Assembly: GCA_031280375.1 (NCBI GenBank)
Contig: JAITGU010000050.1
Location: 1 to 47,075, forward strand
Source of the DNA: Candidatus Methanovirga procula
Lineage (GTDB): Archaea > Methanobacteriota > Methanobacteria > Methanobacteriales > Methanobacteriaceae
Length of the DNA: 47,075 bases
Direction: 5' to 3'
Shown: in pieces, positions 2,798 through 47,075 of the stretch
How the letters are laid out: each line of letters begins with the position of its first letter
Position numbering within the stretch: the stretch's first letter is position 1
Made by a program: the position numbers and the translations under genes
The notes under the pieces: generated by a model
The model's database searches: none
The model's input: the letters and a program-made list of their open reading frames with translations, nothing else
What the model was told of the DNA's origin: nothing

Positions 2798-2859
2798 AAA
2801 TTCTGTGATGAACCCTATGAGCTCTGATTTATGATGATTGATGGGCGATCTGAGAATTT
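2798..2859 (+). ncRNA. Box C/D sRNA (2'-O-methylation guide)
   Basis: Reads aaattc-t-GTGATGA(C)-accctatgagct-CTGA(D')-ttt-ATGATGA(C')-ttgatgggcgat-CTGA(D)-gaattt. Both guides are exactly 12 nt. A 6-bp terminal stem pairs aaattc with gaattt. A TATA-like tatagtat lies about 25 nt upstream. Confidence 0.85.
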
Positions 2860-2921: not shown

Positions 2922-3188
2922 ATGAATTCAACTGAAATAAGTTTGGTTGAACTATGTTTTTACTCTTGGTTGATTCCAGGTTCAGGCCATATGTATTATA
3001 GACAAGTCAGAAAGGCAAGAAGTCTTTTAATTTTCACTTTTTTGTGGTATACAAGTATTCTACCAGATTTTTTAAAAATCCACAGTTTAAACATAGTTAG
3101 CACAATTATATTATTAGTGTACATAATCCTGGCAACATACTCTGTATATGATGTGTATAGAATATGGAAACAACACTCCAACCATTGA
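2922..3188 (+). CDS. Small integral membrane protein, unknown function
   Basis: ORF with hydrophobic segments and an LIPGSGHMYYRQVRKA-type motif. ATG 2922 is preferred over the TTG at 2910. No family assignment. Confidence 0.45.
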   Translation: MNSTEISLVELCFYSWLIPGSGHMYYRQVRKARSLLIFTFLWYTSILPDFLKIHSLNIVSTIILLVYIILATYSVYDVYRIWKQHSNH

Positions 3189-3513
3189 ATATAAGTTCAT
3201 AAGGTAATTTCTTGTAAATTAACTTATTGATATATTGATTAAATTTAAATTTATTATATTATTACTCTTATTTTTTAAAAATATGTAATATAATTATTTG
3301 ATATTAAAAAATTTTATAAACAGTATCATAACCACTTAATTTTCATAGTTTTAAACTTGATTTTTAATAATTTTTACCTGCTTTTTATTATCAAAATTCA
3401 TTCATTAAGTTTTAACTCTCTTTTTTTCATATAAAATAAATTATATATAAACATTTAAAATTAAATTGTCATGACAATAGTAAAGGCATTTTCTTAAACT
3501 TAATATATGATGT

Positions 3514-3998
3514 TAGTTTTTGGAAAATGATTTTGATGAACCTTTTGTTTTTAACGAAGTGAAAAACTTAGGAGACGAAGTCTCCGTTTATTCTCAAGCG
3601 AAGCATGAGAATTTAGAAAAATCTCTGATTTTTTGTTATTTCGAACGAAGTGAAAAATTTAACGAAATTTTATAATTTCGTGTTTTTAAAAGTTTCTTCT
3701 AAATAGTAAAAAATTGAAGTTTTTTAAACTTATAAAAACTTTTGATGAAACTTTTGTTTTGAACGAAGTGAAAAACTTAGGAGACGGAGTCTCCGTTTCT
3801 AAAAGTTTCTTCTAAATAGTAAAAAATTGAAGTTTTTTAAACTTATAAAAACTTTTGATGAAACTTTTGTTTCGAATGAAATGAAAAACTTAGGAAAATC
3901 TCTGATTTTCCGTTTTCTAAAAGTTTCTTCTAAATAGTAAAAAATCTAAGATTTTGAAATTTATAAAAGTTTTGATGAGTTTTTTAAAAGGTTCTTAT
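3514..3998 (+). repeat. Hairpin-array element, locus A (one long unit plus tandem units of 113 and 117 bp and a partial fourth)
   Basis: Units start with TTTTGATGAA at 3531, 3740, 3853 and 3970, and the locus ends with AAAAGGTTCTTAT at 3986-3998. Hairpins seen: ggagac-gaa-gtctcc, attctcaagc-gaa-gcatgagaat, aaaaatc-tctg-attttt, aacgaaatt-ttat-aatttcgt, ggagac-gga-gtctcc and ggaaaatc-tctg-attttcc. Confidence 0.9.
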
Positions 3999-4041: not shown

Positions 4042-6165
4042 ATGAAAAAGAATATTTATCTTGGTAAAGAGAATATTTATCCATTCACAGCTATTGTAGG
4101 TCAAGAAAAGATTAAAAAAGCCTTAATACTAAATGCCATCAATCCTTCAATTGGTGGAGTATTGATTAAAGGAGATAGGGGAACAGGAAAAACAACAGCT
4201 GTTAGAGCATTAAGTAGTTTACTGCCAGAAATAGAAACTGTTGAAGGCTCACCATTCAATGTAGATAAAAATGAATACATTAATTTCCAATTGTACAAAT
4301 TCCATAACAAAACAAAGGAGGATGAAATTAAAATAGTTAAAAAACCTATGAATGTAGTTGAACTTCCACTTGGAGCTACTGAAGATAGAGTTATCGGCTC
4401 GATTAACATAGAAAAGGGACTGAAAGAAGGAGTAAAACAATTAGAGCCTGGAATTTTGGCTACTGCCCATAAAAATATACTCTACATTGATGAGATAAAT
4501 CTTTTAGATGATAACTTAGTGGATGTTCTATTGGATTCTGCTGCTTTTGGAATGAATACAGTTGAAAGAGAAGGAATATCAATTAAACATCCATCAAAAT
4601 TTATTTTAATTGGAACAATGAACCCAGAAGAAGGTGAACTTCGAAGACAACTTTCTGATAGAATAGGTTTAGAAATATTGGTTAGTGGAATAGAGAATAT
4701 TAAAGAAAAAATTACAATTATGAAGTATAGGCAAGAATTTGAGAAAGATCCTAAATCATTCAGAGAAAAATTCAAGGATAAAGAAATAAAGCTTAAAGAA
4801 AGAATAGAAAGTGCTAAAGATGGATTAGCTGAAGTTGAGATTGATGATAACTTAATTAGAATAATAGCTATAAACACTGATAATTTAGGATTAGAAGGGC
4901 ATAGAAAAGATATAGCTATTTTAAAAACTTCAAAGACAATAGCTGCATTTGAAGGAAGTAATACAGTGAATTATGAAAATGTGGTTGAGGCTTTTGAATT
5001 AGTTTTAGGTGAATATCCTGATTGTATGGATAGTTCTCAAAATGATGTCAATACTCCAAATAATGAAAATGATGGCACTGCTCAAAATAATGAAAGTAAT
5101 TATACTCAGAATAATAATGAAAAACAAGACACTGAGAAAAAAGAAGATAAAAATGACAATGAACAACAATCACAACAAAATACTAAAAATGAGGAAAACA
5201 ATAATGAAGAAGAAAATGAAAATTTATCAAATCAAGCACAAAGTGGAACTGATCTTAAAGAAAACGAAAATCAAGGTAGTGATTTAGAAATTAAAAGAGT
5301 TGAGAATCAAAGAAAAGTTGATGACTTTCCAATTGAAGAATTAGAAAAAGATATTAACAAAATTCTAATATTAAAAGGAAGAGAAAAAGAAAAAATTTAT
5401 GGTAATAGAGTAGAATCAAAGACAGAAAAAGGAAAATATGTTAAAACAAAGTTTTCAAAGGATTATAATGATATAGCTATTGATGGAACATTACGGGCAG
5501 CTGCAATTCATTCAAGAGATAAAATCTCAGTTAAAAAAGAAGATTTAAGAAGTAAAATTAGAAAACATAAATCAAGGGCAAGTATAGTTGTTGTAATGGA
5601 TTTAAGTGGCTCAATGATGAGTGATGAAAAAATAAATAAAATAAAGGGAATATTAAATAAAATTATTAAAAACATTAATAAACATAAGGACAAATTAACT
5701 GTCATTGGGTTTAAAGGTAATGAAAGTGAGATCATAATTCCAAACACAAAAAGACCAAGCTCTTTTTTAGACAAACTTGGAAAAATTAGTGTTGGTGGGA
5801 CAACACCAATGGCTAAAGGATTAAAAAAAGGATATGAGATTCTAAAAAAAGAAAAAAAATATGGGGAGTACATTCCTATGCTTATTTTACTCTCTGATGG
5901 GATGCCTAATGTTGGTATTAAAAACAGCGATTTAAAAAATATTACTGGAAGTCCAATAAAGGATGTTTTAGCTATTGGAAGACAGTTGGCTGATGATAAA
6001 ATATACATAATTGTTATAGATTTTGAAAAAAAGATCAAACAAGGTAAAAATGTTAATTTAGAGTTAGCTATTATTTCTAATGGCAAATACTATGATTTAG
6101 AAAATGTATGTGATTTTAGTGTAGCTATTGATAAAATATTAACTTATGAAAGGTCTATTTTATGA
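4042..6165 (+). CDS. Mg-chelatase-like ATPase, ChlI/ChlD (BchD)-type: AAA+ module, low-complexity linker and vWA domain
   Basis: N-terminus [38 protein letters not shown], Walker [14 protein letters not shown]-rich linker (about nt 5030-5290), and a C-terminal vWA with MIDAS motif [10 protein letters not shown]. Confidence 0.85.
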
Positions 6166-6190
6166 AAATAGCTATTTTTGTTTAATATTT

Positions 6191-6361
6191 ATAAGAACCT
6201 TTTAGAAACACGAAATTATAAAATTTCGTTAAATTTCTCACTTCGTTCGAAATAACAAAAAATCAGAGATTTTTCTAAATTCTCATGCTTCGCTTGAGAA
6301 TAAACGGAGACTTCGTCTCCTAAGTTTCTCATTTCATTCGAAACAAAAGGTTCATCAAAAC
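6191..6361 (-). repeat. Hairpin-array element, locus B (inverted copy of the first unit of locus A)
   Basis: The reverse complement aligns to 3531-3700 with 161 of 170 identical positions by my manual alignment, including a 90-nt perfect stretch. The same four hairpins occur in the same order. Confidence 0.92.
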
Positions 6362-6458
6362 TTATTTTTTAAAAATAATAAAATCCATTTTTAAAGAATT
6401 ATTTTAATATTTATAAATTCATTTTTGATTTTATTATTTAAATTAATGAATAATTAAT

Positions 6459-13704: not shown

Positions 13705-13862
13705 TTTTTGATCAAACTTTTCTTACTTTTTAGATAAGTTGGGAACTTCAGTTTCTATTGATTTCGAAGGAAGTGAGAAATTTGGGAAACAAAGTTTCAA
13801 TTATTTCGAACGAAATGAGAAATGTAGAAAACAAAGTTTTCTTTGTTTTTCATTCTTAAAAA
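13705..13862 (+). repeat. Hairpin-array element, locus C (divergent ends)
   Basis: Contains ttttgatcaaactttt, then gggaacttcagtttc, then two modules: atttcgaaggaagtgagaaat plus ggaaac-aaa-gtttc, and atttcgaacgaaatgagaaat plus agaaaac-aaa-gttttct. Confidence 0.8.
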
Positions 13863-14976: not shown

Positions 14977-15075
14977 CTTTGGATTATCATTAATATTTAA
15001 ACCTTGAACGATAACTAATATTTAAACCTTGAACTATAACTAATATTTAAATTTTGGAGCTATAATTAATTTTTA
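14977..15075. repeat. Four tandem units of about 25 bp (accttgaac[g/t]ataactaatatttaa)
   Basis: Units at 14977-15000, 15001-15025, 15026-15050 and 15051-15075. The middle two differ at one base and the outer two are degenerate. Each contains TTTAAATA on the minus strand, which is TATA-box-like. Confidence 0.8.
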
Positions 15076-15209
15076 TTAAGAACTTCCTTCAAAATATGAA
15101 CATCACCTTTACTTAAAACTTTTAAGAGAATAATTGAAAATGAATAAGCAAATAGTGATATGGAATAGCAACAATTAAAAGCATTAACTTAAAAGTTTTA
15201 ATTTTTAAG

Positions 15210-15345
15210 TTAGAAAACTTTGATTTCGAGCAGAGAGAGAAATTTAGGGAATGAAATTCCCGTTGTTTTGAACAAAGTGAGAGACTTAGGACAGAGTATC
15301 CGTTAGTTCCAAACAAAGTTAGGAACTTAGAAAATGGAGTTTTCT
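15210..15345 (+). repeat. Hairpin-array element, locus D (5'-truncated, three to four modules)
   Basis: Modules: atttcgagcagagagagaaat plus gggaat-gaa-attccc, gttttgaacaaagtgagagac plus ggaca-gag-tatcc, gttcc-aaacaaagtta-ggaac, and agaaaa-tggag-ttttct. Confidence 0.8.
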
Positions 15346-15353
15346 TTATTTTC

Positions 15354-15465
15354 TTCAATTCAAAATTTTTTATTATTGAAAATTTATTTTTCAATTTAGA
15401 AGAATTAATTCTTCGTTTTTGAATTTAGAAAACGAAGTTTTTCTTTAATTCAAAATTTTTTATTT
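15354..15465 (+). repeat. Second hairpin module family, bounded by an 18-nt direct repeat aattcaaaattttttatt
   Basis: Contains ttgaaaa-tttat-ttttcaa, the 16-nt palindrome gaagaattaattcttc and agaaaac-gaa-gttttt. Positions 15362-15419 recur perfectly, inverted, at 37810-37867. Confidence 0.85.
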
Positions 15466-20056: not shown

Positions 20057-20629
20057 TCACTTTTTTGAAAAGAGTTTATTAAGTTTTTTTTTAGTGAATT
20101 TCAAAAGATAAAAATGAATTTCAGAAGATAACAATGAGTTTTAGGATGATTTTTTTTTGAATAATTTACAGTCCTTGGTATTAACAATAACTATTAATTA
20201 ATGAATTTTTCTATTGTTAAAAATTTATTTTTAACTTAGAAGAATTTATTCTCTGTTTAAAAATATTGATTGAAAATAATTTATTTCCTTATTAAGTAAT
20301 TTAAAATTAATTATATTAAAAAATATATTATTTAATTAAACAAAAATTCAAAATAAAATAGTATTATATTTATTTAAAAAGTCCATTACTTAAAAAAATT
20401 ATTCCAAGGGCTATAAATTATTTTTTATAATTTAAAATAAATTTTTAATAATATTAAATTTTAATATGCTAAAATTTTAAATCTCGAAATTTAAAATGAA
20501 TATATTTAATATGGGAGTTTATATACTATAAACTCTAAACATAAGTTTAGATATTGAATAAGTTTAAAATAATGAATCATAAGTTATATAAATAGTATAA
20601 TATAAATTGATATTTTGGATTAATAACTT

Positions 20630-23664: not shown

Positions 23665-23880
23665 TAGTTTTTGGAAAATAACTTTTGATGAACCTTAACT
23701 TGTTAAGGTAAAGTTAGGGAACTCCAGTTCCCATTGATTTCGAACAAAGTGAGAAATTTAGGATACAAAGTATCCATTATTTCGAATTAAATGAGAAACT
23801 TAGGATACAAAGTATCCATTATTTCGAACAAAGTGAGAAACTTAGGGAATGAAATTTCCGTTTTTGAAAGGTTTTTCTAA
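23665..23880 (+). repeat. Hairpin-array element, locus E (best-preserved copy)
   Basis: Begins tagtttttggaaaataacTTTTGATGAACC. Then ccttaac-ttg-ttaagg and gggaac-tcca-gttccc. Then three modules (atttcgaacaaagtgagaaat plus ggatac-aaa-gtatcc, a second copy of that module, then plus gggaat-gaa-atttcc). Ends tttttgaaaggtttttct. Confidence 0.9.
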
Positions 23881-24078
23881 TAAATAAAATTGATTATAAA
23901 TAAATTTAGCAAAGATTATGATTAATATAAACTTTATGAAAAATTTCTATTTTGGCTTATTCTTGAACAAATAGAGTTAGGAAAATCTAATTTTTTATTT
24001 CCAGAGGTAATTATAGAAAAATTTTTTATTTATTCAAAGATTTATTAATTATAATATTAAAAACAATCAGAGGATAAT

Positions 24079-24736: not shown

Positions 24737-24866
24737 TAGCTTTTTGAAAAATTTTATGATGAACCTTTCGCAGCAAAATGAGAAACTTATGGAATTAACT
24801 TATCGTTGTTTCGAACAGAGCGAGAACTTAGGAACCAAAGGGTCTGTTTAAAATGATCTTCTAAAA
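24737..24866 (+). repeat. Hairpin-array element, locus F (short, degenerate)
   Basis: Reads tagctttttgaaaaattTTATGATGAACCTTTcgcagcaaaatgagaaac...gtttcgaacagagcgagaac plus ggaacc-aaa-gggtct...gtttaaaatgatcttctaaaac. Confidence 0.75.
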
Positions 24867-24982
24867 CTCCACAAAAGTTTACAACCTCAATATATCAATA
24901 AATTTATATAGGATAAAAACAAAAACTTTAATTGTTGTCTTATTTTACTTGAAATCTAATTAATAAATTTGTTATTATATGT

Positions 24983-46751: not shown

Positions 46752-46991
46752 ATAAGAACCTTTTAAAAATGGGAATTTCATTCCCTAAATTTCTCGCTCT
46801 GCTCAAAATAAACTGAGACTTTGTCTCCTAAGTTTTTCACGACCTTCGAAACAAATGGGAAATCAGAGATTTTCCTAAGTTCTCACGACCTTCGAAACAA
46901 CGGAAACTGAAGTTCCCTAACTTACCTAAAGGTAAGAAAGTTTAAGAAAATCAACGATTTTCTAACTTAACAAGTTAAGGTTCATCAAAAC
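46752..46991 (-). repeat. Hairpin-array element, locus G (longest repertoire)
   Basis: The reverse complement reads TTTTGATGAACC. Next come ccttaac-ttg-ttaag, agaaaatc-gttg-attttct, cttacc-ttta-ggtaag and an imperfect gggaac-ttca-gtttcc. Then three modules (gtttcgaaggtcgtgagaac plus ggaaaatc-tctg-atttcc, gtttcgaaggtcgtgaaaaac plus ggagac-aaa-gtctc, attttgagcagagcgagaaat plus gggaat-gaa-attccc). It ends TTTTTAAAAGGTTCTTAT. Confidence 0.9.
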
Positions 46992-47075
46992 TTATTTATC
47001 CATTTTTAAAGAATCACTTTACTATTTAGAAATTTAAATCTTAAGTTCATAGCATTGGTTTAATTTTAATATTAA

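Follow-up and report, generated by a model that had tools for sequence, protein, structure and literature searches.

We judge it somewhat better than an even chance that the 21-nt hairpin described here (hairpin A) is one "brick" of a lineage-specific, non-autonomous, DNA-level modular repeat that occupies intergenic regions and in which the fold-back of a single strand is conserved. The family is most likely selfish or neutral repeat DNA, not functional RNA, and its architecture appears, by analogy, to be best matched by the bacterial modular repeats BrickBuilt, BOX, and REP/BIME (PMC4596501, PMC2817692). The preliminary description of this DNA missed both the modular-repeat membership of the hairpin and its quick gain and loss of modules.

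The window, that is, the whole stretch of 47,075 nt that was analysed, has a G+C content of approximately 27% and encodes archaeal and methanogen markers, including DUF356, HMG-CoA synthase with thiolase, a pseudomurein-binding repeat protein, and 4-HFC-P synthase. The DUF356 protein shares 98% identity with its counterpart in Methanobrevibacter sp. CfCl-M3, and the coding regions match those of "Ca. Methanovirga australis" at approximately 92% identity. CfCl-M3, also designated "Ca. Methanobrevibacter cononymphae", lives as a facultative endosymbiont in termite-gut protists and has an ANI of 96.2% with Methanovirga procula. Judging from sequence, the host is a termite-gut methanogen of Methanovirga/Methanobrevibacter, near strain CfCl-M3. 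Within the collections and loci scanned, the hairpin family is confined to the Methanovirga procula/cononymphae-australis lineage and is found only between genes. Scans of viral, metagenome, phage, and plasmid collections gave no match, or lone chance matches without surrounding arrays, and the hairpin covariance model found no match in the orthologous DUF356 loci of six more distant relatives. The 21-mers of L020, a deltaproteobacterial MAG with 53% GC, were rejected as family members, having no array context. These two copies of ATGTC-ATTTC(G/A)AACGAAGTGAGAAAT (2018-2038 and 6342-6362) match the archaeal 21-mer, lie directly 5' of minus-strand gene starts, and probably represent a bacterial upstream motif with no relation to the family.

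Hairpin A has the form (G/A)TTTC-GA-NN-loop-NN-GA-GAAA(C/T) and folds as (((((..((...))..))))), with a symmetric 2x2 internal loop and a triloop. A 19-mer consensus with up to 3 mismatches has 14 matches in the window against 0.07 expected, and a covariance model built from the ungapped alignment of hairpin A identified 17 copies at E<0.01, all intergenic. With 26 M. australis loci added, the model found 66 copies, again all intergenic, approximately 50 of them from M. australis; this sample is biased because the loci were fetched by pattern match to hairpin A. The conserved module hairpin that had been proposed, at about 20 copies, is thus real, with approximately 17 copies in the window and a co-varying stem. 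The stem variants listed with it are also present, namely the T-A inner pair (aTgaaAt at 3869 and, on the minus strand, at 6324; aTtaaAt at 23779), the A-T to G-C change (gaGCagaGCga at 46789, minus strand), the outer C-G to T-A change (TTTT/AAAA at 3547 and 3756), and the change from gtttc/gaaac to GTTCC/GGAAC at 15306. A further inner stem type, GT/AC, occurs in loci L011 and L018, and all four Watson-Crick combinations are seen in the inner 2-bp stem, on differing outer-stem backgrounds. The two GA dinucleotides are almost invariant, as described (G6 63/66, A7 66/66, G15 65/66, A16 66/66), and GA lies opposite GA in 62 of the 66 copies; the copy at 15306 breaks this rule with AA/TA. Such invariance is not special to GA, as T2-T4 and A18-A20 are equally invariant. 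The proposal that the triloops of hairpins A and B switch together fails over 25 modules (Fisher p=0.41).

The locus at 23,683-23,878 contains three tandem 42-nt modules (23737-23859), each composed of hairpin A, TTA, a 15-nt hairpin B, and ATT/GTT. Tandem Repeats Finder reports a period of 42 and 2.7 copies here. The features of this locus are as follows.

23683..23699, plus strand: left end of the enclosing element, TTTTGATGAACCTTAAC
23737..23757, plus strand: hairpin A copy 1, ATTTC-GA-AC-AAA-GT-GA-GAAAT, 36.6 bits with the covariance model
23761..23775, plus strand: hairpin B of module 1, GGATAC-AAA-GTATCC, the second half of the 42-nt module
23779..23799, plus strand: hairpin A copy 2, inner pair T-A and loop TAA, found with the covariance model
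23803..23817, plus strand: hairpin B of module 2, identical to that of module 1
23821..23841, plus strand: hairpin A copy 3, found by consensus search and covariance model
23845..23859, plus strand: hairpin B of module 3, GGGAAT-GAA-ATTTCC
23860..23878, plus strand: right end of the enclosing element, GTTTTTGAAAGGTTTTTCT, complementary to the left end

Two small hairpins (23693-23709, 23717-23732) come after the left end. In L045, from a related species, the orthologous site keeps the left end, and has both ends and two small hairpins without an A module. "Empty" forms, in which the left end is joined straight to the right end, are found at 3965-3995 of the window, in M. filiformis, and in L047. 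Because empty forms exist and L045 has the ends without hairpin A, the arrays evidently grew within an older palindrome. The 220 nt 5' of the DUF356 gene (23860-24078) are near-invariant in the window, CfCl-M3, and L045 and partly kept in L046, although identity of the DUF356 protein falls to 84% in L045; the region may be a leader, a promoter, or a small RNA candidate. Hairpin B was also considered as an NrpR-type GGAA-N6-TTCC operator and was rejected, as the spacing is wrong.

The arrays in general consist of 21-nt hairpin units strung together (A, B, and several others); these are linked by TTAG...GTT and enclosed by a left end TTTTGATGAACCTTTT and, complementary to it, the right end AAAAGGTTCTT, which form an inverted-repeat element. 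The other units include GTTGTC-GAA-GACAAC, TTCTCAAGCGAAGCATGAGAA, and GGAGAATC-TTT-GATTCTCC. Terminal inverted repeats are present (GAACCTTTT/AAAAGGTTC), with co-varying GAAAC/GTTTC and CAAAC/GTTTG ends, and in some copies a TATA-like TTATAAAA is located just 5' of the left end. The other arrays in the window are listed below.

3531..3995, plus strand: composite array with a 170-nt multi-hairpin element, a 113-nt tandem triplication, and the "empty" left and right end at 3965-3995
3547, 3638, 3756, and 3869, plus strand: hairpin A copies of the 3531..3995 array, found with the covariance model
6190..6376, minus strand: inverted copy of the 170-nt composite element, with hairpin A at 6233-6253 and 6324-6344
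13706..13850, plus strand: array with two 42-nt modules, hairpin A at 13761 and 13803
15200..15450, plus strand: array in which hairpin A (15223, 15265, and 15306) occurs together with other 21-nt hairpin units
20232..20270, plus strand: related 21-nt hairpin units, with unit TATTGTTAAAAATTTATTTTT present in the window and missing from CfCl-M3
24754..24865, plus strand: array 3' of the DUF356 gene, with hairpin A at 24808-24828 and a degenerate copy at 24763
46760..47006, minus strand: array containing one hairpin A (46789-46809) together with two GAAGGTCGTGA-variant units (46832-46852, 46878-46898)

The array at 15200..15450 is antisense to both neighbouring genes, and that at 24754..24865 is conserved in CfCl-M3. 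The 170-nt multi-hairpin composite is dispersed within and between the window species and M. australis with 88-98% identity. Array neighbours in the window are housekeeping genes, among others DUF356, tRNA-Ile, argininosuccinate lyase, and RibD. A type III toxin-antitoxin repeat RNA was rejected as an identity for the arrays, since the adjoining genes are housekeeping genes, and a CRISPR array was rejected since its would-be "spacers" are repeated hairpins as well (B and others), with a period of 21/42 nt. The 113-nt tandem triplication (3682-3978, 89% matching) has as its unit a whole small element, duplicated together with a spacer containing a TATA-like AAACTTATAAAAAC. A Mg-chelatase-like AAA+/VWA gene (4042-6165) lies between the inverted 170-nt composites (3531-3700, plus strand; 6190-6365, minus strand), an arrangement that in sequence resembles a composite transposon. 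A 25-nt tandem repeat at 14991-15051 (TAATATTTAAACCTTGAACGATAAC, 2.4 copies, 97% matching) is unrelated to the hairpin family.

Arrays change as entire 21- or 42-nt modules are gained or lost. The window has three 42-nt modules where CfCl-M3, with flanks 97-99% identical, has a single A hairpin (the counterpart of 23779-23799, the only one of the three A copies to have a counterpart). The triplicate at 23738-23860 is an expansion specific to this strain, a point that the preliminary description also missed. Likewise, a 21-nt hairpin unit at approximately 20240 is an indel, present in the window and not in CfCl-M3. Module content is not the same in orthologous arrays of the window and of M. australis; the M. 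australis site orthologous to 46760..47006, for example, also has an array, of different content. Modules are found in unrelated sequence as well. One 42-nt A+B module shows a precise presence/absence difference inside an unrelated IS630-like MITE: between "catg" and "gtttctttaRttataaaat", L027, L028, and L030 have the module and L024 and L053 lack it, with GTTTC microhomology at the junction. A MITE family distinct from the hairpin repeats, with terminal inverted repeat GAGGTTGTAAAYTTTTGTGGAG, is common to several Methanovirga-like genomes; one such terminal repeat is found at 24866-24890 of the window (CTCCACAAAAGTTTACAACCTCAAT), the family also occurs in L006, L024, L027, L028, L030, L045, L047, and L053, and it retains an IS630-type transposase C-terminal remnant in L030 (2404-2493, YSPKFNPIEQVW). 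At approximately 2995-3220 of the CfCl-M3 locus L053, opposite window position 20096, lies a MITE-like insertion of approximately 225 nt, whose ends are GAGGATGGGACAC...GTGACCCAGCCTC and which has GAAT on either side. The window and L045 lack this insertion of CfCl-M3, which is thus taken as a recent insertion polymorphism.

Statistical comparison indicated that the stem of hairpin A co-varies. In the alignment, 92% of cells pair, and compensatory double changes occur in 5 of the 7 stem pairs. The covariation score is 0.346 versus 0.227 in column shuffles (0/500 reach the observed score), and slid registers score at most 0.147. Two more robust shuffle measures were non-significant alone (41/500 and 213/500), and a tree-based null was therefore run, in which per-column parsimony changes were re-placed randomly on a neighbour-joining tree. 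Against this null, the fraction paired has p=0.01, the double-changed cells p<0.0005, and the number of pairs that carry double changes p=0.035. Covariation among the window and M. australis copies thus exceeds column shuffles, slid registers, and the tree-based null, and lies above phylogenetic expectation. In addition, fully paired haplotypes have higher copy number (Mann-Whitney p=0.002), and the high-copy subfamilies are fully base-paired. The claim of selection on a folded single strand holds insofar as pairing is kept by something acting on the folded strand; its RNA/L7Ae reading is not supported.

Two explanations that dispense with a selected fold were weighed against these data. The hairpins could be iteron-like sites for a dsDNA-binding protein, phased every 21 bp (two helical turns), as the regular 21/42-nt period and the invariant TTTCGAA and TGAGAAA cores would suggest. 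Compensatory changes at five pairs, however, have no rationale in a dsDNA site, and because they are inexplicable by it, such a site was ruled out as their cause. The half-sites, moreover, constantly differ (GA vs TC), and hundreds of dispersed copies with variable unit content are unlike an operator set or an origin, making iterons extremely improbable. Alternatively, the repeats could be a mutational by-product free of structure selection, in which fold-back template-switch errors make or correct inverted repeats, compensated arms arise in single events, and subfamilies amplify by chance. This would agree with the GTTTC microhomology at junctions and the module-sized indels, and the independent double changes may number perhaps only five or six. 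We nevertheless consider it very unlikely: fold-back correction should turn GA/GA into Watson-Crick pairs, yet the loop is kept in 62/66, all four Watson-Crick combinations of the inner stem occur on different outer-stem backgrounds, and fully paired haplotypes are the ones with greater copy number.

The GA/GA mismatch is strand-specific, because the opposite strand would read TC/TC, and since the GA/GA loop and the purine triloops define a "top" strand, the single-stranded form appears to matter. Both GA steps of hairpin A lie in a Y-GA-R context (C-GA-A, T-GA-G), and the 5'-Y-GA-R-3' context favours sheared tandem G-A in DNA and in RNA. C-GAA-G loops are classic stable DNA mini-hairpins, and Hirao, Chou, Reid and colleagues reportedly described stable DNA mini-hairpins such as d(GCGAAGC), with C-GNA-G triloops and sheared tandem G-A. 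Many units of the archaeal family have C-GAA-G loops, and one contains the exact GCGAAGC; the DNA mini-hairpin is, however, a biophysical motif and no genetic element, and AAA and AGA loops are also common in the family. Isolated hairpin A is predicted to be thermodynamically weak and only marginally stable, with energies of -1 to -5.6 kcal/mol as RNA and -0.5 to -2.2 as DNA, and the comparative data therefore support the fold more than energetics.

A competing explanation treats the arrays as modules of structured RNA, expressed either as UTRs or under a promoter of their own, with hairpin A serving as a protein-binding element (for an L7Ae-like G-A binder or other protein) or as an mRNA-stabilising or terminating element. 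Covariation combined with a strand-specific tandem G-A and purine triloops would be expected of such an RNA, and the TATA-like TTATAAAA just 5' of the left end in some copies is consistent with it. So are the better predicted folding of the top strand of hairpin A as RNA (-3.2 vs -1.2 kcal/mol for the bottom strand) and the single non-Watson-Crick pairs of hairpin B (8 G-T vs 1 A-C). In hairpin A, however, A-C pairs outnumber G-T pairs (10 vs 5), and wobble asymmetry was rejected as an RNA/DNA discriminator, as hairpins A and B contradict each other. Fold energy was also rejected as a strand discriminator, because whole-element z-scores are alike on both strands. In co-directional intergenic regions, 9 arrays are sense and 8 antisense, which argues against a cis-acting mRNA element, and variation of module number between near-identical strains is a poor fit to a dosage-sensitive RNA. 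An Rfam search, at the gathering threshold and at E<=1, found no family matching the repeats. Overall, the evidence leans to DNA over RNA, and structured RNA modules are an unlikely, though credible, account.

The kink-turn/K-loop bound by L7Ae resembles hairpin A in having tandem 5'-GA/3'-AG beside a Watson-Crick helix, and at the sequence level GA lies opposite GA as in a K-turn. The analogy that had been drawn to it breaks down nonetheless: the internal loop of hairpin A is a symmetric 2x2 loop, no copy has the 3-nt bulge, and the hairpin is not tied to transcription direction. Like kink-turns, box C/D and H/ACA RNAs differ in that the hairpin repeats match no Rfam family. The UGAUGA of the left end was considered as a box C/D RNA and rejected, as the right end has no CUGA partner and Rfam is silent at E<=1; a hammerhead reading was rejected as well, with core nucleotides absent and no Rfam match. 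A candidate box C/D sRNA lies elsewhere in the window at 2801-2855 (plus strand; Rfam sR2, 40.9 bits, gathering score 42, E=1.1e-5), and Rfam sR1, sR3, and sR5 match the same spot.

No transposase is encoded in the window, and no other enzyme able to read the hairpin was found in the DNA searched. A search by motif and tblastn, the latter with an approximate sequence of IS608 TnpA as query, found no Y1/HUH gene in the approximately 342 kb of Methanovirga-lineage DNA, from partial genomes, within the 470 kb searched; for Y1/HUH or IS630 transposases, only the C-terminal IS630-like remnant in L030 was recovered. No parent IS with ends matching the hairpin family was found in this search. No target-site duplication is definable, because the element boundaries run into conserved flanks, and an alignment of L009 with L045 for an empty site or target-site duplication was rejected since these loci are not orthologous. 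These results bear on a REP/RAYT- or IS200/IS605-like system, in which a dedicated single-copy HUH (Y1) transposase would read the G-A irregularity of hairpin A as ssDNA and cut and paste or copy modules. Precise module insertion in unrelated DNA and orientation independent of transcription would suit such an enzyme, and the family shares the REP/BIME logic of imperfect palindromes, strand-specific irregularities, and mosaic intergenic arrays (PMC2817692, PMC3479197). Given that no Y1/HUH ORF was found in the DNA searched, that the GTAG/CGTC tag is absent (PMC3733652), and that A copies in one array are co-oriented rather than alternating, we regard this system as improbable.

In bacteria, short repeats of this modular palindromic kind are familiar from REP/BIME, BOX, and BrickBuilt, and the present family is an archaeal case. 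BOX elements of Streptococcus pneumoniae have the structure boxA-boxB(n)-boxC. As in the archaeal arrays, complementary terminal modules surround a variable number of short internal modules, stem-loops are predicted, and the elements cluster and insert into each other (PMC10969869). BOX differs in its domain of life and sequence, and boxB is 45 nt long and not a mini-hairpin pair. BrickBuilt of Porphyromonas gingivalis is a MITE with an internal 23-nt minisatellite and has shown promoter activity (PMC4596501). The likeness lies in a leader and tail with small inverted-repeat ends around tandem repeats of approximately 21-23 nt, in variable repeat number, and in a strictly intergenic, multicopy distribution within a single lineage (PMC4596501); correspondingly, the archaeal family has 1 vs 3 modules between strains, empty forms, and an intergenic location. 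BrickBuilt is, however, bacterial, has no sequence similarity to the archaeal family, and uses one 23-nt brick, whereas the archaeal family has several 21-nt hairpins, one with an invariant tandem G-A loop.

REP/BIME-RAYT systems share with the archaeal family short imperfect palindromes in high-copy intergenic mosaics, and the REP hairpin is read as single-stranded DNA with conserved irregularities (PMC2817692, PMC3479197, PMC3733652); irregularities are conserved here too. REPs are 20-40-nt imperfect palindromes, high in copy number and extragenic, and the window has 17 copies in 47 kb, all intergenic. In place of the GTAG/CGTC tag (PMC3733652), the flanks read ..GTT/ATT upstream and TTAGG downstream. 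The alternation of BIMEs (PMC2817692) is also missing, as the A copies in an array share orientation (++++, ---). L011 and L018 are exceptions to this shared orientation. The REP/BIME-RAYT systems further differ from the present family in its archaeal host, and no RAYT was found in the DNA searched. To our knowledge, RAYTs have not been reported in archaea. Repetitive and double-hairpin elements of sponge and fungal mitochondria are alike in being tiny hairpin modules that invade AT-rich intergenic DNA, are nested, and differ between close relatives (PMC2800124). Those elements are organellar and GC-rich, whereas the archaeal modules are chromosomal and AT-rich with purine loops. The published archaeal MITEs come from Sulfolobus, haloarchaea, and a few others, with none reported for Methanobacteriales (PMC10969869). 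The Methanovirga and CfCl-M3 papers do not mention these repeats, and our literature search found no report of short modular palindromic repeats in Methanobacteriales methanogens, such repeats being barely documented in Archaea (PMC10969869).

In the modular DNA repeat that we favour, modules would spread as DNA, by template switching or recombination at common GTTTC/TTAG junctions, and might hitch-hike on MITE-like elements. Only variants whose top strand is able to fold back as ssDNA would be copied or retained, a requirement that would explain the compensated stems. The purine-rich irregularities (the Y-GA-R tandem G-A/A-G and the GAA/AAA triloops) would persist as part of the fold or as the cue of a putative protein. 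Several points count against this DNA-repeat explanation. Slippage or template switching alone leaves unexplained why GA/GA is never "repaired" to Watson-Crick pairs, and the excess of G-T over A-C in hairpin B is expected of a strand-specific fold, possibly RNA. The marginal predicted stability of the hairpin, the biased M. australis sample, and the enzyme search, which found none, count against it as well.

A bolder and quite doubtful possibility is that the 42-nt module or the 21-nt hairpin is a discrete archaeal mobile unit or, alternatively, that the arrays are multivalent RNA decoys. A putative structure-specific enzyme would recognise the folded strand via the invariant tandem G-A and insert it at GTTTC junctions; as decoys, the arrays would bind a putative G-A-motif protein. 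If true, the mobile unit would give Archaea a counterpart to REP-RAYT or attC-integrase logic and be the smallest mobile unit described.

The invariant tandem G-A in a co-varying mini-hairpin offers a clean handle for finding a hairpin reader, and if nothing reads the hairpins, the family would be a natural example of fold-back-driven repeat growth. Since modules turn over between near-identical strains of a facultative protist endosymbiont, the arrays are a possible strain-typing marker, and the family could record genome dynamics during the move to endosymbiosis.
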